From contig CM120649.1 in NCBI GenBank assembly GCA_051362555.1, positions 1,736,001 through 1,800,000 of the forward strand: a DNA stretch of 64,000 nt. Direction: 5' to 3'. The first letter of the stretch is position 1. Each line of letters begins with the position of its first letter. The translations under genes were made by a program, and so were the position numbers. Positions 721-12,185 of this stretch are shown piece after piece. This stretch comes from Lingula anatina. Lineage: Eukaryota > Animalia > Brachiopoda. The notes under the pieces were generated by a model, which did no database searches, was not told where the DNA came from, and saw only the letters and a list, made by a program, of their open reading frames with translations.

Positions 721-1241
721 TGTTGTAAAGTTAATTACTTACCCTTACACTCATTACAATTAGTAATAAAAGGGAAATCAAATAGATGAAAAGTTAGAGT
801 GATATTGAGTGCAAGTTAAGCTTAATCGAGTGTCAACAAGTGTAGAACATGTTTTTAGTGTCAGAAGAAGATGGAAAAGATCCAAGGCAATAACATTTAA
901 TGTGATTGGTCAATTTCATAACAGATGTTAATTTTGATCAACTGTTTATCACATGATAACTAAGTTTTGGACATGATTCAAGTATGAGTAATGCAAATAG
1001 TATTTTGGATGAGTTTAGTTGAAAACAAGGTTCTTAGACATTACCTAATAAGGGAATGTACTATGGTAAAGTAAACATGACAATGGAAAGTTTCTGGAAA
1101 TCACGCCATAAACAATAAAAAGAACATGATTACACGCGTGATCAGTACGGAAAATTAGAGTATAAATATGGGTAAAATTGTATGAAAATTAAGTGGTGAA
1201 TAAATGATTGAAGACTCCAGAACCTCGTCGGCGTTATAATA
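721..1241 (+). repeat. 5' LTR (521 bp)
   Basis: Matches 10955-11475 with one visible mismatch (A880 vs G11114). Termini TGTTGTAA...TTATAATA. Confidence 0.97.
1161..1204 (+). promoter_or_regulatory. LTR TATA box (1161-1168) and poly(A) signal AATAAA (1199-1204)
   Basis: TATAAATA followed 38 nt later by AATAAA near the LTR 3' end, the usual U3-R-U5 order. The 3' LTR copy of AATAAA is at 11433-11438. Confidence 0.7.
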
Positions 1242-1243
1242 AA

Positions 1244-1253
1244 TGGTGGAGGA
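1244..1253 (+). promoter_or_regulatory. Primer-binding site, probably tRNA-Ala
   Basis: TGGTGGAGGA lies 2 nt after the 5' LTR. TGGTGGAG is complementary to the ...CUCCACCA 3' end of tRNA-Ala. Confidence 0.7.
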
Positions 1254-1276
1254 AGAAACCGGTCCCGACTCTACCG

Positions 1277-3031
1277 ATGCAAAGTGAACAACCAGAGAAT
1301 TGGAGTCCTCCAGCAGCAAACACTAGAAAAGCTGTACAGAAGAAACAACTAGAGTCAGGTACCGAAGGTAAATCACCACAAAGACTGGAGAAAACACCAA
1401 CTTTATCTCCAGGAACACCTTGTTTTACATGTACTTTTGCTCCAAAATACGTTAAAGAAAGTGAACAAACTTTTGAAATTCTATCATCTAGCAGTGAGTC
1501 GTCCGAAGAAGACGAAACACTACCTGAAAATTCTCACCAACAGACTGTTGTTCAGAAATGCAGTTTGTTAGATCAAGTCGTCGAGCAAAAATCACCATCA
1601 TATTTTTTGAAAGAGGCCAAACCAATTCCAACAACAGCGACAACCAAATTTCCCAAATCATCGAATTTGAAGGGTTATGCATCGTTAAGCAAAAATCCAT
1701 TTCAAACCGTCCAGAATCTCCCATTGTTATTAGCGACGACGACGACAACGACACAACCGACTCCGAATCTTCAACTGTCATCAGCTTTTCCGAAAACGAA
1801 CCCATTATTATCAGCGACGACGACGACAACGACACAACCGACTCCGAATCTTCAACTGTCATCAGCTTTACCGAAAACGAGCCCATTGTTATTAGCGACG
1901 ACGACGAAGACGACAACACAAGCGACTCCGACAACGACAGAGTCCGCTCAGAGTCTCCAATCGTCATTGATCTCAGCGAAGAATAAGGAGCATTATTCGC
2001 TGAACGTTCAAGATCGCCATACGAACAATTTATTAACAATCGAAAAAACTAGCAAGAAAACAATGTCGTCAGATTTAGGGTTGGCTCCTGAAAAATTCAG
2101 AGGAAATGGAGATGAAGATGTAGAGAGATGGTTGACTCATTTTAGAAACTTTGTCAGTTATAAAGAACTAGAAGGAGACCAGATAACGTCCATTTTTCCT
2201 CTCTTGTTAAAGCAGTCAGCTCTTGATTGGTACGAATCTTTGCCATCTAGAGTACAAAAAGACTGGGAATCTCTTGAGGGCGAGTTTCGACAAAGATATC
2301 AGCTTAGAGATGGGGAAACCTGGGCGAAGGCGTCAGAGTTTTTCCGACGAAACCAAAGGCAAGATGAACCAGTTCAAAATTATATAGCGTCGATGAGGCA
2401 TGATGCAAAACGAGCTCGATTAGATGAAGGTACGGCTCTAACCGTAGTAATGAACGGTTTACTACCGGAAATAAGACCTTTCGTGGTGCAAAGGGAACCC
2501 ACCGACTTCGACTCGTTGGTACACCATGCCCGGATTGCAGAGAATGCAGTACAACCCACACGAAGAGATCAGCAGTCCGATATCAAAATGATCACAGAAA
2601 AAATCGACGCCTTAAAAAGCTCCATCAATGACGTTGTCTTGGCCAGTAAGCAGCCTGAAGTACAAATGGTACAGAATCCGAGACAAGTCCCGAGACCAGT
2701 CCCGAGACAGATCCAGAATGTCCGAAACCTCATACCTCCAAGGCCAAGTCCATTGACTTACATGAGAAGGTTCGGTACCAACGGCATCGGCCACGGGCGC
2801 ATCGACCAACGAAACTTACCACTACGACGCCCCGGGTACAAAGCACTGCCAACAAGTCGTCCGAGAAATCAACAGCAACAAAGCTCAATGAAGGGATGGC
2901 CCATGTGTCAAGGATGTGGTGAGTACACACATCTAAGATCTAAGTGTTTCGCTCGCAATTTCAATTGTTTTTATTGTGGCAAAGTAGGGCATTTAGCAAA
3001 AGTTTGTCATGCTGCGCGAGTGAGCAAGTGA
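1277..3031 (+). CDS. gag: Gag (core from ATG 2063, MSSDLGLAPEKF...), with an open 262-codon Thr/Ser/Pro/Gln-rich N-terminal extension from ATG 1277
   Basis: Retrotransposon-gag-like core (PEKFRGNGDEDVERWL...ALDWYESL...EPVQNYI). Two C-terminal CX2CX4HX4C knuckles (CQGCGEYTHLRSKC, CFYCGKVGHLAKVC). True start codon uncertain. Confidence 0.9.
   Translation: MQSEQPENWSPPAANTRKAVQKKQLESGTEGKSPQRLEKTPTLSPGTPCFTCTFAPKYVKESEQTFEILSSSSESSEEDETLPENSHQQTVVQKCSLLDQVVEQKSPSYFLKEAKPIPTTATTKFPKSSNLKGYASLSKNPFQTVQNLPLLLATTTTTTQPTPNLQLSSAFPKTNPLLSATTTTTTQPTPNLQLSSALPKTSPLLLATTTKTTTQATPTTTESAQSLQSSLISAKNKEHYSLNVQDRHTNNLLTIEKTSKKTMSSDLGLAPEKFRGNGDEDVERWLTHFRNFVSYKELEGDQITSIFPLLLKQSALDWYESLPSRVQKDWESLEGEFRQRYQLRDGETWAKASEFFRRNQRQDEPVQNYIASMRHDAKRARLDEGTALTVVMNGLLPEIRPFVVQREPTDFDSLVHHARIAENAVQPTRRDQQSDIKMITEKIDALKSSINDVVLASKQPEVQMVQNPRQVPRPVPRQIQNVRNLIPPRPSPLTYMRRFGTNGIGHGRIDQRNLPLRRPGYKALPTSRPRNQQQQSSMKGWPMCQGCGEYTHLRSKCFARNFNCFYCGKVGHLAKVCHAARVSK
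1558..1986 (+). CDS. Accessory ORF overlapping the gag leader: acidic protein with tandem SUMO-interacting-like motifs
   Basis: 142 aa with PIVISDDDD, PIIISDDDD, PIVISDDDE, PIVIDLSEE and two TVISF[ST]E motifs. Candidate acceptor ttgttcAG at 1554-1555. Differences between repeat copies are synonymous or conservative in this frame. Confidence 0.6.
   Translation: MQFVRSSRRAKITIIFFERGQTNSNNSDNQISQIIEFEGLCIVKQKSISNRPESPIVISDDDDNDTTDSESSTVISFSENEPIIISDDDDNDTTDSESSTVISFTENEPIVISDDDEDDNTSDSDNDRVRSESPIVIDLSEE
1720..1935 (+). repeat. 81-bp tandem repeat, about 2.5 copies, read in two frames
   Basis: Units start at 1720, 1801 and 1882 (ccc att gtt att agc gac gac...). Confidence 0.9.
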
Positions 3032-6000
3032 CTAAGAAAAGGAACATATAGAAAATTCTATAATAAGACTGAAAATAGGAAAGTACCAATTGCGATTATG
3101 TCTAATTACCAAGCTAATAATTTAGTATCAGTTCGCATTGACAAATTACAAGTTAATGCTTTAGTTGACACAGGCGCTGTCATATCTTGTATATCAGAAG
3201 AACTTTTATCAAAATTAGGAAGAAAAGATCGAAACTTATATGAAAAGCCATCATTAAGAGAAGTTACGGTTGTTGATGGATCTGCGATTAAAGTCCTAGG
3301 AAAAATAGAGTTACCTATATGTTTTCAAAATGTGATCATAAAACATAAATTCCATGTATTTAGTCAGATGCCAAGAGGTTTGATATTAGGTACAGACTTT
3401 CTAAAAAAACATAATGTAAAAATTGATTTATCGTCTAATAGCATGACATTGCCTGATTATGATTTGCTCTTGTCCATGTTTAGTCCACATGTATTAGGTT
3501 TAGTACGTAACTTCAAATCAGAATTGATTCCACCCAGATGCGAATGCTTAATTCCTGTGAAAATATCACATTCTTCATTTGTCTCAGTAGCTTTATTAGA
3601 ACCAGTACAAAAACTTGAGTCAAAGAAAAATCTTATTGGAGCAAAATGTTTAGTTTCCATTAATAAAAACAAATCTTACTACAGAATACTAAATCCTAGT
3701 GATGAAAGTATTTTTCTGCCTAAAAGAACAATATTAGCTTCTGCAAGCTCAATTAATCTAGACAGCATAGCTGTTTTAAATGAAATGTCAGAAGGGAATA
3801 AAATACAAAAGGGTGATCATAGGTTATCAGATCATGAAGCGTTACAAAAAGCTGAAGAATTAAATATAAAGTTTACTGATTCAGACATAAGTGAAAATCA
3901 AAAACAACAGCTGAAAATGTTGATAGGACGTAATCGTGATGTTTTTGCTATCAACCTTTCAGAGTTAGGCACAGCAAATATGTATAAACATCGAATTGAC
4001 ACAATAAATGATGTTCCTGTTAAACAAACATTTTATCGTACTTCACCAAAGCTGAAAGAGGAAATTGTTAAACAAGTAGACGAGATGTTAAAACATAGCA
4101 TAATTGAAGAAAGCATGAGTGAATATAGTAGTCCAGTAGTACTTGTAAAAAAGAAAAACGGTGAATATAGATTCGCAATAGATTACCGGAAGTTAAATAA
4201 AGTTACAAAACCTATGCATTGGCCACTACCACGTTTAGATGATATTTTTGAAACAATAGGTACATCAGGCGCTAGATATTTCTCTAGTTTAGATATGGCA
4301 GGTGCATATTGGCAATTACCCCTTGATCCTGAAACTAAACACAAGACTGCTTTCATTACACACCATGGTCATTTTCAATTTTTGCGTTTAGCATTCGGCC
4401 TTCGTAACGCCGGTGTTAGCTACCAGGCTTTAATGAGCCAAATTTTTAAAGACATGAATTGGAAAACTATCCTTATATACATTGACGATATTTTGGTCAT
4501 GAGTAAAACATTTAATGATCATTTAAAACATTTAGAGTTAGTATTTCAAAAACTGAGATCTGCCAATCTTACACTTAAACCATCAAAATGTAAATTTGCA
4601 ACACCAAAAGCTAAATATTTAGGTCATGTAATAGATAAAAATGGAATAAGACCAGACGAGAAAAATCTTGAAGCCATAAAATCGTTTCCAACACCAAAAG
4701 TTGTAAAAGATGTCAGAAGTTTTCTAGGATTGTGTAACTTCTACAGAAAATTTATAAAAGGCTTCAGTAAAATAGCAGAACCCTTAAATAAACTTTTACG
4801 GAAAGACGTACAATTTTTATGGAGTCCTGAATGTGAAGCATCATTTCAAACATTAAAAGAAGCGTTAATTTCACCTCCTATACTAGCTTATCCAGATATG
4901 TCGCGAGAATTTACATTGACAACGGACGCATCTACTTCCGCTATAGGTTATATTTTAGGTCAAAAGAATGAGAACAATCAAGATAGAGTTATTGCGTATG
5001 GAGGAAGATCTTTGAACAACGCGGAAAAGAACTACACAATTCATGAATTAGAATGTTTGGCAGTAATTGAAGGAATAAAGCAATTCGAACAATATTTATC
5101 TAACAACCATTTCAAAGTGTATACAGATAATAAAGCAATATCTTGGTTACAAAATGTTAAACATACAAATGGCAGACTTATCAGTTGGTCATTAAAATTA
5201 CAAGGCCTAGATTTTGAAATAATTCACAGGCCTGGAAAAACAAACCCAGCTGACGCATTATCAAGACGTGATTATGAACCAGTACATGTTTTAGATACTG
5301 TTAACAATAGTCAGTTAAGTAAAGGTCACATGCGTCAAGTTAAACATTGGACCCAAGCTAAACTTTTCTTACCAAAACAAACAGATAAAAGAATGGAGCA
5401 AAGTTTAACTCAATATAATAACATGAACAGTGTTGATGTAACAAATGTAAACGATAAAGAGAAATTAAAAAAAGATCAACGCGAATGCCCTGAGTTTCAA
5501 GATATAATACTTTACCTAGAACAAAATTATTTACCTAGTGACTTAAAACAAGCGCGTAAAATCATAGCAGAATCAGAACAATATGTAATGATAGATGGTA
5601 TTTTGTATCATCTGTATCAACCTCGTACGCGGGGAATGCCAGAAAAGATGAGAATAATAAGACAATTAGCAATTCCAGTAACACTAAGAAGTGATGTTTT
5701 ACATGCATATCATGATTCATTAACAGCCGGTGGTCATCAGGGTTGTGATAGAACATTTGCCTCTATAAGAAATAAATACTTTTGGAGATCACTTTATAAA
5801 GATGTCATGGAATACGTTAAATCATGTGAAGTGTGTCAAAAGGTTAAACAATTGCGTAGAGATGCTCCAGCACCTTTGAACCCTTTACCAATTGCAGGTG
5901 TGTTTGAAAGAATGCACATGGACATTCTAGGACCCTTGATAAAATCAAGAGAAGGATATAAGTATATTCTGTTAGTAACATGCTCTTTTTCCAATTTTGC

Positions 6001-7090
6001 TGAAGCAATACCCTTAAAAACTCAAGAAGCTGAAGAAATAGCTAAAGCTCTTTATAGAGAAGTGTTTACAAGATATGGCTGTCCGTCATATCTCGTTTCT
6101 GATCGCGGAAAGAATTTTTTGTCCCAAATTATTCAATCACTGTGTAAATTGTTCCACATTAAACGCTATCATACTAGCGCATGGCATCCACAAAGTAACG
6201 CAGCCTGTGAAAGAACCAATTCAATAATTGCACAAACATTAAGAGCATATTGCGATAAAGATCAAACTAATTGGCCTGATATTCTTCCAGGTGTAATGAT
6301 GGCATTACGTATGACTCCTTGTACACAATCTACACATTTTTCTCCTTATTATTTAGTATTTGGACGAGAGATGCGTACACCATTAGATAGTGATTTAATT
6401 CCTGAACTTAATGATAACAAAAATCTACATCAATACATTAAGGATTTGAAAAACACTCTGTCAACAGCAAAAGAAATAGCAACAAAGAATAGAGAAACAT
6501 CTCAGAAACAATATAAAGCAAGGTATGATCTTAAATCAAAGCAACCGATTTATAAAATAGGTGATAGAGTTTGGATATATACGCCAATGACACCTAAAGG
6601 GTTAAGTTCAAAATTGTACATCAAGTACAAAGGACCGTATTATATTACGAAGATTTTATCTACGGGTTGCACATATTATTTGAGAGACTGTAAAACGCAT
6701 AAAGAACATACATCACCTGTCCATGCAAACAGATTAAAAATGTACTATGATCCTAAAGACTATAATAAATACACTAGGTTAAATGACAGTAACCTTGAGC
6801 AAGTCAAGACGAACAAGAAGCAAACGAGTATTGAAACACAAGACAAAGATAAACGTGAAACAAAAGAATTGGATCGAACATCAGACGAAAATCAAGATAC
6901 GTACGAATATTATGAAGTAGAGAAATTGTTATGTTGTAAGAATATAAACAGAAAGAGACATTACAAAGTAAAATGGAAGGGTTATAAGAATCCTACTTGG
7001 GAACCCGAAGAAAATATTTCAGATGCATTAAAAAGAGATTATCATATTAATAAAACTTTACAAGGAAGACGAAGAAAACGTAGAAATTAA
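3032..7090 (+). CDS. pol: Pol polyprotein: aspartic protease, dUTPase-like segment, RT, RNase H, integrase, GPY/F, chromodomain; in frame with gag behind a single TGA
   Basis: LVDTGA; YIDD at 4478-4489; TTDAS; H..H..CEVC zinc motif; MDILGP/SDRG/CERTN catalytic triad; KGPY; YEVEK...YKVKWKGY...TWEPEEN at ~6908-7045. No stop between 3032 and the ATG at 3098. Confidence 0.97.
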   Translation, partial: LRKGTYRKFYNKTENRKVPIAIMSNYQANNLVSVRIDKLQVNALVDTGAVISCISEELLSKLGRKDRNLYEKPSLREVTVVDGSAIKVLGKIELPICFQNVIIKHKFHVFSQMPRGLILGTDFLKKHNVKIDLSSNSMTLPDYDLLLSMFSPHVLGLVRNFKSELIPPRCECLIPVKISHSSFVSVALLEPVQKLESKKNLIGAKCLVSINKNKSYYRILNPSDESIFLPKRTILASASSINLDSIAVLNEMSEGNKIQKGDHRLSDHEALQKAEELNIKFTDSDISENQKQQLKMLIGRNRDVFAINLSELGTANMYKHRIDTINDVPVKQTFYRTSPKLKEEIVKQVDEMLKHSIIEESMSEYSSPVVLVKKKNGEYRFAIDYRKLNKVTKPMHWPLPRLDDIFETIGTSGARYFSSLDMAGAYWQLPLDPETKHKTAFITHHGHFQFLRLAFGLRNAGVSYQALMSQIFKDMNWKTILIYIDDILVMSKTFNDHLKHLELVFQKLRSANLTLKPSKCKFATPKAKYLGHVIDKNGIRPDEKNLEAIKSFPTPKVVKDVRSFLGLCNFYRKFIKGFSKIAEPLNKLLRKDVQFLWSPECEASFQTLKEALISPPILAYPDMSREFTLTTDASTSAIGYILGQKNENNQDRVIAYGGRSLNNAEKNYTIHELECLAVIEGIKQFEQYLSNNHFKVYTDNKAISWLQNVKHTNGRLISWSLKLQGLDFEIIHRPGKTNPADALSRRDYEPVHVLDTVNNSQLSKGHMRQVKHWTQAKLFLPKQTDKRMEQSLTQYNNMNSVDVTNVNDKEKLKKDQRECPEFQDIILYLEQNYLPSDLKQARKIIAESEQYVMIDGILYHLYQPRTRGMPEKMRIIRQLAIPVTLRSDVLHAYHDSLTAGGHQGCDRTFASIRNKYFWRSLYKDVMEYVKSCEVCQKVKQLRRDAPAPLNPLPIAGVFERMHMDILGPLIKSREGYKYILLVTCSFSNFAEAIPLKTQEAEEIAKALYREVFTRYGCPSYLVSDRGKNFLSQIIQSLCKLFHIKRYHTSAWHPQSNAACERTNSIIAQTLRAYCDKDQTNWPDILPGVMMALRMTPCTQSTHFSPYYLVFGREMRTPLDSDLIPELNDNKNLHQYIKDLKNTLSTAKEIATKNRETSQKQYKARYDLKSKQPIYKIGDRVWIYTPMTPKGLSSKLYIKYKGPYYITKILSTGCTYYLRDCKTHKEHTSPVHANRLKMYYDPKDYNKYTRLNDSNLEQVKTNKKQTSIETQDKDKRETKELDRTSDENQDTYEYYEVEKLLCCKNINRKRHYKVKWKGYKNPTWEPEENISDALKRDYHINKTLQGRRRKRRN

Positions 7091-7340
7091 AAAGTAGTCT
7101 CTTCAACATGAGTGAGTTCGATAATCAATACACTGGTAAAGAAAAAGATACACACACATTTAAAAAAAAAAAAAGGGTATACTGTACACAAGGTCAAATG
7201 TAAAATTTGGAAATATCAGCCATACAGCTTAACCGAACCCTAAATGATATCCGGATATCTATTTCCTATCTATCCTATCTTTTATTTTTCTTCTCTTTTT
7301 CTTAGATGAGGCTAAGTTGAGCAGTATTCGCTGTAAGCCA

Positions 7341-9747
7341 ATGGCATTGACCTTCAAAGAAATGGTTCTATGGATTCTCGCTATCATGAGCGTTGCATCA
7401 GCTTCCTCGACAAAGATGGAACAACGCATAAATTATGGTATTGAGTTTAGACCATTTACTGATGCACTTTTTTAACGTAGGGCATTGGTATCATTCTTTT
7501 GAGTTAAAATTACCTAGAATTGATGTAATACCAGCTAGGTTAACGCCATGTCCTAATGGTAAAGTTGGGGAAAATAAATTGATAAACCCACGTTGTAAAA
7601 TATGGATAGACGAAGCAATACGAACATTATCAACATTAAAAAATCAAACAATACACGATTTACGATTGACCATGAAGACAATTTTGTATATGATGCCACA
7701 AATTACTTTGCATGATGTTAGATCGAGAAGTCAAAGATCATTGTTACCAACAGGTAATTTATTCAAAATGCTGTTTGGTGTTTCTAGTGAGTCTGATGTT
7801 ACAAATTTACGAAATTATGTTAACAAGTTTAAAAAGGGTACAATTAACTTGTTTACTAAACAAGCACATAAAATGACTTCATTCATAAATATGGTAGACG
7901 ACAGAATGGAAAACATGAAATCTGCCATTGCTCAAAATCATGAAATTGCTCAGAAATTAAGTTTTGATTTGAACATTTATGCTAGAAATAGTGAATTAGC
8001 AGCAGTAATATCAAGATTGTTTGCACACGAAGAAATGGCTAATTCTCAATTATTATTTTCATTTCAAAATCTACTGATGGCATGCATTCAGTTGACAAAA
8101 GGACAATTGTCATCATTTTTAATTCCACCTGAAGAACTGAGTAAAGTACTTACCGGAATTAAAAAAGAGTTACGTACAATGCCAATCCCAATGGAATTAA
8201 TTCACTATGACCCGAAATATTATTTCCACCATGGACAATTTACATACGGTTTATTCAATCGTTCATTGTTTATAAATCTTCAAATCCCTGTAGTATCCAA
8301 TGCACATATTTTGGAAGTGTACGAAGTTATTACGTTTCCGGTTCCACTTAATCAATCCACAAATCATGCATCCCAGATTCTGAATCTTCCTAAATATTTT
8401 GCCATCACCAAAGATAGACAACATTATGCTATTCCTGATGAATTTACTTGGAGACATTGCAAAGGTAGTCATCTTAAACTTTGCAGTTATAACATGCCAC
8501 TCTTGTCTGTTATTCAGCCAGACTGCACTGCTGCATTGTTTTTAGAGATCTCAGATAAAATACAGCTGCTCTGTAATTTTCGATTTGTTTATAATGCAGT
8601 TAAAACACAGATAAAAGATGTTTTGACAAACCAATTACTTTTGATAAACATAACTGACATTACCCTCAGATGTCCTAAAACAACAACTTCACTAAGCGGA
8701 TGTCACTATTGTGTTATTCAAATCCCTTGTTTTTGCAGTTTGAATTTAGATAGTTTTTATCTCCCACCTCGAGTATCAAGTTGTCAAAACAATACTGAAA
8801 TAACAAAGCTCCATCCTATTAATTTGGGTTTATTACAGTACTTTTATTCACCAGAACAAATTTCTAAAATTGGAAGTAATGATTTATTTAATAAACCCTT
8901 AAATTCGAAATCGAATCTTCTACAATTATTTCAACATAACTTTTCCCGTTTTCTCGCCAAAGATTCCATTGATCATTTGAGCCTACAAAAAATGGCCCAT
9001 GCTTCAAAAAGACAAGAGCAAATCTATTCTTCAATGGCAGATGCTATTTTAGCAGACGAAATATTTCCTACAAATAATTCATCTGAGATAAAAATTTGGA
9101 TTTCATTAGGATTATCGGGCTTATTGTTCATGATAACGATTGGCCTAAGTATCAAAGTCAGACAATTGGCATTAATAGTGGCTTTAATGAAAAAGACACG
9201 TGGTAATGAAGTTTTTCCAACTATTCCGCATTGGTTATTAGATACCACAACAAAGCCAAATTATAAACCAAAGGAACTAAATTCCACAGATCCAACAACA
9301 TTTATTATTTTATTAATGCAGATTGTAATTATTATAATTGTTTTGATTTTCATCTTAGAACAAATCTGGAGAAGGTTTTTCAAATCAAAAAGAAATACTT
9401 TAGTTTTAGAGATTTCTAACAATGAACATTGTATATCAATTCCAATTAAAAATCTATCATTTTGTCCAAAATACTGGGTTTTTCAAAGTGATCATTTTTC
9501 GTTTGATATTTTAAGAGTTGAAGGAATTTACAGACCATATTTGATGATAAATTGGCATGGTTTGCAAATTACAAACCTCATAAATCGAAAGACCATTATT
9601 TTGGAAGAGGCTATCCCGTTAAAAACGTTTACAGCATTTCGCTTAAGGAGATTACTTAAAAGCGAATATTATGCGTTTTTGTGTATTAAACATGCTAATG
9701 CACTTTTCTATGTTCAGTTCGAGACATTTGAGCACAATATAGAATGA
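7341..9747 (+). CDS. env: Envelope fusion glycoprotein (baculovirus F / errantivirus Env-like) with a +1 frameshift at 7468-7473
   Basis: Signal peptide MALTFKEMVLWILAIMSVASA then QRINYGIEF in the 7341 frame, which stops at CTT TTT TAA; the protein continues in the 7435 ORF. RSQR cleavage site (7726-7737) followed by a fusion-peptide-like SLLPTGNLFKMLFGVSSESD. Heptad-rich and Cys-rich regions. Hydrophobic segments at ~9094-9153 and ~9301-9369. Strong polypyrimidine acceptor AG at 7304-7305. Confidence 0.88.
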
Positions 9748-10205
9748 TTTTGATCAAAACTTGGCATGACTTGCTACTCTTGTCTAATAATACAACACAA
9801 TACAATGATTTTTGCGAGTGAACTGTTATAACACGAAGATGTGTGTACAAACATAAAATGACATTTCCATGACTTGAAGATTGAATTTTCTTGATTGTTA
9901 ATTTGATATCAAACACTGATATATGTATTATTATCATGATAATGACTTTGAGAAATGCACAAAGTTATTTTCAATTTGATTCTTGAAGATTACTACTATT
10001 ATGTAATATTATAATACTTATTATTAAAATCATTCACTATTTTATTTGAGTTTTGACATATTGATTTTAGTTATCTATAATATATTATGTAAAATGTAGT
10101 CATTATAATTAGTATATTTTATTTCAATTGTTAAGTATTTAATATTGATATTAAACATTTGTTAATCAATTAGAATGAATTATAATATGTTCTATTTTTT
10201 TTCAG

Positions 10206-10768
10206 ATTCTGACGAATTTGTATATAATATTTACATAGATGACAGAATTGTCAGCTTATCTTTTAAATTTTTTGAGAATTTACGTAAACATTCAATATAC
10301 ATAAATGAATTGTATTTTAAACAGAAAAGAGAACCTAATTTTCAAATAAAATTTCCTTCTGAGGTGATAAACGAATCAATTTTACTGATGTTTTGTGGAA
10401 AGTTTAATTCTATAGATGAACAGTTGGACTTTGTAAAATTAATAGGTTCTGCTCATTATATGATGATATCAGAAGATTACATAGTTTATATGTTGCATCA
10501 AATACCATCAGGTATTGGTAAATGTATTATTCAAGCAATATATTATGCATGGAATGTCACTCATTTAGTCAAAGTTAGCATATTATTACTACGACGTTTA
10601 AATATTGCTGTTAAATATTATACTGAATTACTACTGAATAAGGATAAAGTTATATCATATAATAGATTTAGACGACGTATTATTAAGATAACAAGAAATG
10701 ACAATAATTGTGTTCTTACAATAAATGTTATGACACAATGTCCTGTTTGTAAATACATTGAACATTGA
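10206..10768 (+). CDS. Accessory ORF/exon encoding a divergent BTB/POZ-like domain with a C-terminal CxxC
   Basis: LRKHSIYINELY, QIKFPSEVINESILLMFCGKF and DFVKLIGSAHYMMISE line up by eye with the BTB pattern La.+S.YF..lf / i.l..v..e.f..ll.f.YtG / ..ll.aA.yl.i. The ORF is intact in very AT-rich DNA and follows the acceptor ttctattttttttcAG (10204-10205). An in-frame ATG is at 10175. Confidence 0.62.
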
Positions 10769-10917
10769 TGCATGGAACAAATTAATGTCAAGTATATTTT
10801 TAGTTCATTAAGATAATATGACGAGTTTATGATTAAATGATTTGCGAATTTTATGTTATTCAGTATATGCTTTGCTTTAAAAAAAAAATCAAAAAGGAGT
10901 GTATGTTGTAAAGTTTT

Positions 10918-10950
10918 AGAATTCGAGGACGAATTCTTTTGAAGAAAGGG
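10918..10950 (+). promoter_or_regulatory. Pre-PPT hairpin (10918-10937) and polypurine tract (10941-10950)
   Basis: AGAATTCG-AGGA-CGAATTCT forms a perfect 8-bp stem. GAAGAAAGGG ends 4 nt before the 3' LTR. Confidence 0.8.
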
Positions 10951-10954
10951 TGTA

Positions 10955-11475
10955 TGTTGTAAAGTTAATTACTTACCCTTACACTCATTACAATTAGTAA
11001 TAAAAGGGAAATCAAATAGATGAAAAGTTAGAGTGATATTGAGTGCAAGTTAAGCTTAATCGAGTGTCAACAAGTGTAGAACATGTTTTTAGTGTCAGAA
11101 GAAGATGGAAAAGGTCCAAGGCAATAACATTTAATGTGATTGGTCAATTTCATAACAGATGTTAATTTTGATCAACTGTTTATCACATGATAACTAAGTT
11201 TTGGACATGATTCAAGTATGAGTAATGCAAATAGTATTTTGGATGAGTTTAGTTGAAAACAAGGTTCTTAGACATTACCTAATAAGGGAATGTACTATGG
11301 TAAAGTAAACATGACAATGGAAAGTTTCTGGAAATCACGCCATAAACAATAAAAAGAACATGATTACACGCGTGATCAGTACGGAAAATTAGAGTATAAA
11401 TATGGGTAAAATTGTATGAAAATTAAGTGGTGAATAAATGATTGAAGACTCCAGAACCTCGTCGGCGTTATAATA
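10955..11475 (+). repeat. 3' LTR (521 bp)
   Basis: Near-identical to 721-1241 and followed by the TSD TCTG. Confidence 0.97.
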
Positions 11476-12185
11476 TCTGTAAGAAACAAATAGATGTGGC
11501 TAAGGTAAAGGAAAAGATATTCATACTTTTTGTCCTGTAGCAGACCTTGGTCCAAAAGCACCAATAAAAAAAGAAGCTTTATTTACACCCAAGAATGCTT
11601 GTTGCTATAGTTACAGGTAGAACCTGATTTTTGGCCAATTTATTTTTAAATCGGGAGAGTTGAAAACCTTGTAATTGGTAGGTATTGAAGCCTTACTCTT
11701 AAAACATTAAACCAAATACATTATTTTCAAAATCTGATTCATATAGAACGTAGTTTTAACTTTTTTGCCGTACTTTCAGAATTTTTAATTAAATGATCGA
11801 AATGTTGTTAAAGTTAACATTTTTTTTTTATTTCTGAAAGAGTTCCAGAAGTGGTGCTTTGTAAAGTTTTAGATTCCTAATACGTGGATCAAAATAAGAT
11901 TTGATTATTCATAGCAAGAAGAGCAAATCCTCTATCGTTTTATCAACTATGTTCATTTATCCATTTAGGAGGCCAGATTGAAATTTCTCAATATTTCCAA
12001 TTTTCGTATATATTTTATAGTGCCTGACTCAAATCAATTAAAAAATTTAATATGTTATTGGTCATGAGGGTAGTTTTGAGGAGGTTGATGTTTTAAATTT
12101 GTAAAAATGGTGTGAAATATTGGTATCTTCACAGGTACTTTGTATTTTGACAACCATATGTCTTGTTATTTTTGGTATCTGGAAA

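Follow-up and report, generated by a model that had tools for sequence, protein, structure and literature searches.

Complex retroviruses and poxviruses hijack cullin ligases, and accounts of env-bearing gypsy elements give them three genes. A locus of the brachiopod Lingula anatina raises the question of whether an element of the latter kind may carry a fourth gene and, if it does, what the product of that gene would do. The window, that is, the whole stretch of 64,000 nucleotides analysed here, holds an LTR retrotransposon in which an additional open reading frame, here called the accessory ORF, follows env (Table 1). We propose a real and probably spliced fourth gene, whose product is predicted to have a divergent BTB fold, from which we infer a function.

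Table 1. Features of the retrotransposon and its accessory ORF, in window coordinates.
Feature	Position	Strand	Remarks
5′ LTR	721..1241	+	521 bp
3′ LTR	10955..11475	+	purine-rich tract directly before
TCTG target duplication	717-720 and 11476-11479		4 bases, flanks both LTRs
PBS-like stretch, begins TGG	1244..1261	+	putative, from sequence; 3′ end approximate
gag frame	1208..3031	+	first ATG 1277; Retrotrans_gag E 4.8e-9, zinc knuckle weak
Candidate phase-1 donors within gag frame	1284, 1359, 1368, 1494	+	predicted only, rough matrix
Alternative-frame ORF with four SIM-like hydrophobic-acidic repeats	1528..1986	+	read by eye; the “SIM protein” of the earlier note
pol: protease, RT, RNase H, integrase, chromodomain (Ty3/gypsy order)	3032..7090	+	Pfam
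F-type env-like gene	7306..9747	+	strong phase-1 acceptor in front (AG ends 7305)
Predicted phase-1 splice acceptor of accessory ORF	10186..10205	+	pyrimidine count, rank 3/264 YAG sites
Accessory ORF	10206..10768	+	predicted BTB core ~10211-10513; four helices (3-box/BACK-like) ~10526-10693; Cys/His tail

The insertion is young, since the LTRs differ at one of 521 bases and are flanked by the 4-base duplication. Pfam scans show that gag and the PR-RT-RH-IN-chromodomain pol are intact. The env-like gene has a signal-peptide-like segment, starting from the ATG at 7341, and a hydrophobic, TM-like segment; in the window copy, the frame is broken near its 5′ end, and this env has no direct Pfam match. 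Eleven relatives of env were found, five of which match Baculo_F (PF12259), as confirmed for two of the three that were rescanned. The closest named relative is a brachiopod protein with 51% identity. By homology to these relatives, env is assigned to the F type. The layout is that of the F-type “ancient errantiviruses” plus one more ORF: as far as the accessible account of that group goes, the gag-pol-env order, the LTRs, the Ty3/gypsy pol, and the Baculo_F relatives of env are shared, whereas the fourth ORF after env is particular to the window element (PMC13524379). In the available part of the source, the errantivirus survey is seen to be built around a search for three ORFs, and the term “BTB” occurs nowhere in its text and seven supplements (PMC13524379).

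Several other features of the locus deserve mention. The break in the env frame, at 7306-7470, is found in a copy that is very young and otherwise intact, with the BTB-like ORF open. The LTR start recurs as a 12-base copy at 10904-10954, 51 bases before the 3′ LTR and with its own purine-rich tract in front. The chromodomain at 6911-7027 (PF00385, E 2.8e-8) forms the end of pol in an env-bearing animal element. In the flanks, 1-720 and 11476-64000, no long ORF was found; large repeated blocks spaced about 17–23 kb apart suggest a tandemly duplicated host locus.

The frame of the accessory ORF, 10166-10768 on the plus strand, is open for 200 codons. With the acceptor TTTTTTTCAG ending at 10205, a split codon and 186 full codons remain, in agreement with the intact frame of about 187 codons described in the earlier note, which was also right in placing it in very AT-rich surroundings inside the element, between env and the 3′ LTR. 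The 10001-11000 bin has 23% GC, and the third-position GC of the ORF is 0.18. Runs of at least 187 codons were seen in none of 2,000 base shuffles and, under each of two second-order Markov models, in none of 20,000 simulations; the longest in the 52 kb that follow the element within the window has 153 codons. The accessory ORF is, we are confident, a real gene. It has no second copy within the 64-kb window. Two upstream in-frame ATGs, at 10175 and 10187, are unlikely as starts because of their position in or close to the pyrimidine tract and because all four reads of RNA run X18 that cover position 10195 are one base shorter there.

A single homologue, P0001, was found among 1.84 billion representative sequences (E 3.5e-7, 32% identity over residues 15–178). 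Its cluster is unnamed and has two members, which lie on contigs of 2.8 and 1.1 kb. Like the accessory exon, P0001 begins a few residues before the first predicted strand, and it has a CxxC at its end. The terminal Cys/His cluster pointed out in the earlier note is present as C-x9-C-x2-C-x4-H (C179, C189, C192, and H197, numbered from the ATG at 10175); only the CxxC is common to the ORF and P0001, and the tail is unmodelled, with pLDDT below 50. P0001 has a longer C-terminus, in which extra Cys/His residues, a second CxxC-like cluster, are inserted before the shared CxxC. A word-index protein search at near lengths yielded nothing for the accessory ORF, and P0001 found only itself. Locus searches gave no true relative, and the pol, A1, and env-alignment queries were blank. 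Two locus matches were discarded, one being a 22-residue match only (L001) and the other a bacterial alanyl-tRNA synthetase (L002).

How might the gene be expressed? By pyrimidine count, the acceptor in front of env ranks first and that of the accessory ORF third among 264 YAG sites. Both are in phase 1, which would let a single leader serve the two. The accessory “exon” is a putative one, derived from its predicted acceptor. For insect elements, the portion of the literature available to us describes env splicing from donors within gag or shortly before it (PMC12992720).

Six of nine listed RNA runs were examined; X18, X19, and X20 come from one study. In the first mapping, at a 90% cut-off and with about 6% of each run read, these three runs had reads over the accessory ORF, and X12, X14, and X15 had none. 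At an 80% cut-off, the mean depths over the ORF, env, and the spacer are 79, 5.5, and 5.4 in X19 and 21, 5.8, and 2.7 in X20, values in which an oligo-dT 3′ bias can inflate the depth near the LTR; both strands are read about equally. Reads at least 99% like the window copy number just 5 of 1002, 4 of 1037, and 0 of 539, which means that the reads come from related copies rather than from this one. No splice joints were seen, either in the four RNA runs compared with the whole element or in the other two, compared with a sequence without the donor region. In X18, 57 reads are loose-ended before 10734 and 59 behind 10766; these probably stem from a more distantly related transcript whose match is confined to the CxxC tail. 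Also in X18, a related family, 90–95% alike, is transcribed over pol (3900-7200). Its reads leave the alignment at 7094, and there are none on env; this family therefore has a different 3′ region.

The earlier note had read the ORF as BTB-like and had suggested a profile check for PF00651. No such profile was found: Pfam returned no family, PF00651 and related ones included, for the accessory ORF, for its first 101 codons, or for P0001, and a sequence search of the PDB gave no match for the ORF. The support for the BTB reading comes instead from structure prediction and from a language model. AlphaFold2, given an alignment of three sequences, produced a model of the accessory ORF with pLDDT 75.4 and pTM 0.75. 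The predicted topology is β-β-α-α-β-α-α-α followed by four helices. The BTB order of core elements extends to residue 109, with the core spanning approximately residues 13–113, and the predicted model contains the three strands and five helices that characterize the core fold of the BTB/POZ superfamily. The four helices after the core, including 118–127 and 129–141, reach to residue 173.

Foldseek, the second check suggested in the earlier note, listed BTB proteins in 39 of 39 rows against the PDB (best E 0.014, probability 1.00, TM 0.51), and BTB, POZ, or kelch is named in 31 of 50 rows against the viral database BFVD (best E 0.017); at E 0.001 there is no match. VIA-align compared the model with 48,161 chains. 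BTB/POZ, KCTD/Kv-T1, Skp1, or ElonginC is named in 47 of the best 50 titles, one title is unassigned, and the two others are presumably BTB-type entries. The best match has a Z of 8.1, in the range that the tool calls ambiguous, with rmsd 5.8 over 98 aligned residues; gigaxonin has a Z of 7.7, with rmsd 3.4 over 88. The BTB subtype is not separable because BTB-ZF, KCTD/T1, and Skp1 domains are mixed among the top VIA matches at similar Z. In the ESM Atlas, the accessory ORF and P0001 both fall with BTB clusters at 0.92, with shared-feature counts of 131 and 143, against 170 for typical family members. Modelling of P0001 by itself gave nothing usable (pLDDT 40). The three structure searches rest on one shared model, and no single score is strong. 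Since the structure searches and the language-model features converge, with no score decisive alone, we regard a BTB fold of the predicted product as highly probable.

What might a BTB protein do for the element? Lentiviral Vif and Vpx are retroelement accessory proteins that engage cullin ligases. They suggest a possible working principle, by analogy only, as their folds are unrelated and they use other cullins. For Cul3, the published descriptions available in part define the interface as the BTB domain plus a 3-box, with a φ-x-D/E motif in the α3-β4 loop and dimerization through an N-terminal swapped helix (10.1101/461806; 10.1101/2023.02.15.528651). Parts of this are recognizable in the accessory-ORF model. 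The alignment with the BTB/3-box of SPOP covers 114 residues (model 11–148, Z 5.8, rmsd 4.1), and that with the poxviral A55 runs past the core into the 3-box/BACK region, over 133 residues (model 12–174, Z 6.1, rmsd 5.4). Helices 118–127 and 129–141 form the candidate 3-box pair, which the alignments reach at rmsd 4–6 Å. In the α3-β4 segment, the motif position is occupied by K51-R52-E53, and by Q-M-E in P0001, with the register set by eye. The Glu is kept in both sequences, as part of E-P-N, and φ is Lys or Gln. The N-terminal domain-swapped dimer helix is found neither in the exon model nor in P0001; a further exon upstream could add residues. After the helices there is a short Cys/His tail only, with no substrate-binding domain of the kelch, MATH, or zinc-finger-array kind.

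Compared with SPOP, KLHL3/11, and KEAP1, as far as the partly accessible descriptions of these proteins allow, the accessory-ORF product shares the predicted BTB core, the two-helix extension, and an acidic residue in the α3-β4 segment, but identity is 7–15%, and both a substrate domain and a hydrophobic φ are lacking. Three of the canonical features tested, the hydrophobic φ, the swap helix, and the substrate domain, are missing, and the ORF is not classed as a canonical Cul3 adaptor. The weight of the φ residue differs among known proteins. In the available portion of the poxvirus study, a charged residue at φ abolishes binding by SPOP, whereas in A55, proposed to redirect or sequester Cul3, φ matters only moderately; vaccinia C2 seems to be without the swap helix and the majority of the Cul3-contact residues, and it is regarded as a probable non-binder of Cul3 (10.1101/461806). 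The precedent thus cuts both ways.

With these reservations, the 3-box/BACK-like helices make a role as a Cul3 adaptor plausible. We suggest that the fourth gene, between env and the 3′ LTR, would be read from a subgenomic RNA, spliced from a donor close to the start of gag, with one leader serving env and the accessory ORF. The product would be a solitary BTB domain with 3-box/BACK-like helices behind it, possibly monomeric given the missing N-terminal swap helix, and would dock on the host Cullin-3 ligase scaffold. That this accessory gene of an errantivirus-like element encodes a protein engaging a Cul3 ligase is a tentative proposal, to which we give a little less than an even chance. The product could act as a minimal adaptor, presenting a host defence protein to Cul3 by means of the C-terminal helices and the Cys/His tail; this mode is unlikely, if worth pursuing. 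It could also act as a decoy that occupies Cul3, which would be decidedly less probable. The complete scenario, a Vif-like anti-defence gene whose monomeric BTB-3-box protein is made by a second splice from the env leader, recruits Cul3, and destroys a host silencing or restriction factor, is doubtful. The degradation of host silencing factors envisaged in the earlier note found no support in the analysis.

The same note supposed that the BTB-like product might work with the SIM protein. The alternative-frame ORF overlaps the 5′ region of gag, and its repeats are built on an internal duplication of about 130 bp. The gag frame over this segment is of low complexity, with one similar motif just upstream, so that the real protein of the 5′ end may be other than the long gag frame. 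Of the 25 best-scoring donors, not one falls within the SIM frame in the phase that a fusion would require, and a splice fusion with the accessory ORF was rejected, as a rough, home-made matrix revealed no strong donor. The SIM-like frame exists, and nothing ties it to the accessory ORF.

A BTB accessory protein might also dispense with cullins altogether, binding host BTB proteins, such as BTB-zinc-finger repressors or KCTD-type oligomers, or corepressors, and so weakening the silencing of the element. The best structural rows are indeed BTB-ZF/POZ proteins (ZBTB18, Nac1, and BCL6) and KCTDs, and the missing φ residue agrees with such a role. However, the swap helix used by dimers of this kind is absent from the model and P0001, and the extra helices align with 3-box/BACK regions. 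We consider this reading unlikely.

The copies of the element in the species bear on whether the ORF is of any use to it. Two DNA runs hold copies over the accessory ORF, one with near-identical contigs (X1, one difference in about 300 bases) and one with contigs diverged by about 15% (X2). In the diverged contigs, similarity resumes at 10199 (two joints among those listed), within the predicted splice acceptor. Conservation of the ORF among related copies of the same species, whose absence the earlier note would have taken as a refutation, is supported. Among the 12 indels listed of 108, seven lie in the spacer, three in env, and none in the accessory exon; some X2 contigs skip 78 or 516 nt of the ORF. 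Among the 40 rows listed of 1,175, there are 11 substitutions in the ORF: three synonymous, eight non-synonymous, and no stops. The synonymous share, 3 of these 11, is no different from the 25% expected by chance. That the ORF is a captured host exon, a passenger with no function for the element, would agree with the lack of a synonymous excess in these 11 changes, with the copies that delete part or most of it, and with a sole homologue family, P0001, without known context. Against this stand the open frame, with a GC3 as low as that of the element, its retention across copies diverged by about 15% with no listed indel in the exon, and the CxxC tail, which is the short stretch that a more distant transcript appears to match. 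We judge a passenger exon to be rather improbable.

In Skp1, the BTB is reduced to its core, lacks the swap helix, and has helices after it, a layout that the accessory-ORF model shares. A Skp1- or ElonginC-like mimic, bridging or blocking Cul1, Cul2, or Cul5 ligases and F-box or BC-box proteins, would also agree with the VIA scores of Skp1 (Z 6.0), ASK1 (5.7), and ElonginC (5.7). Those alignments, however, end at model residues 98–114, and the Pfam family of the ESM neighbours is PF00651, not one of the Skp1 type, which makes mimicry of this kind quite improbable. Least probable is a modelling artefact hiding another small α/β fold: the three-sequence alignment, the lack of a significant E-value or profile match, and the rmsd of 3.4–6 Å would allow it, but one superfamily emerges from the structure searches and from a separate language-model search, the latter for two sequences only 32% alike.

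Returning to the tentative proposal of a Cul3-engaging accessory protein, known systems offer partial parallels. In the sources available in part, the poxviral A55 and C2 proteins (BTB-BACK-kelch; 10.1101/461806) and giant-virus BTB proteins (BFVD) likewise have a viral BTB followed by helices; compared with A55 and C2, the accessory ORF lacks the kelch, the swap helix (apparently missing from C2 as well), and the φ residue and is encoded by a retroelement. It would work like poxviral BTB proteins at best by analogy. The planarian gypsy elements Burro/GYPSM1 are env-bearing and carry ubiquitin-pathway modules (MATH, SUMO-like, and BIR) proposed, in the accessible part of that report, to meddle with host ubiquitination; theirs are giant polyproteins, with no match to “BTB” in that part, whereas here a small, separate ORF follows env (PMC6431247). 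Accessory genes in LTR retrotransposons are also represented, in the portions of the two papers at hand, by the extra ORFs of bdelloid elements (ORF3 types; PMC5408684) and by sORF1/2 of MDG1 (PMC11952523); the products are exonuclease, esterase, or fusogen-like, the sORFs lie upstream of gag, and no BTB is named. Among the papers searched, in part by title and opening of the abstract and without Repbase, subscription papers, or bioRxiv supplements, none showed a BTB gene in an LTR element. The single mention of BTB in PMC3383448 is a reference to the host protein Mod(mdg4), and the accessible parts of PMC6238403 and PMC12992720 contain none. Accessory ORFs in LTR elements are already known; a BTB accessory gene would add a variant among the errantivirus-like elements.

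The BTB accessory gene is invisible to standard profile searches, which suggests that counter-defence proteins may have been overlooked in such elements. The accessory protein is a small bait, and its partners would reveal the host pathway that restrains elements of this type outside insects. If the Vif-like reading is true, the gene would be a cullin adaptor encoded by an LTR retrotransposon, and the identity of its substrate would reveal an invertebrate factor against retroelements that is so far unknown.
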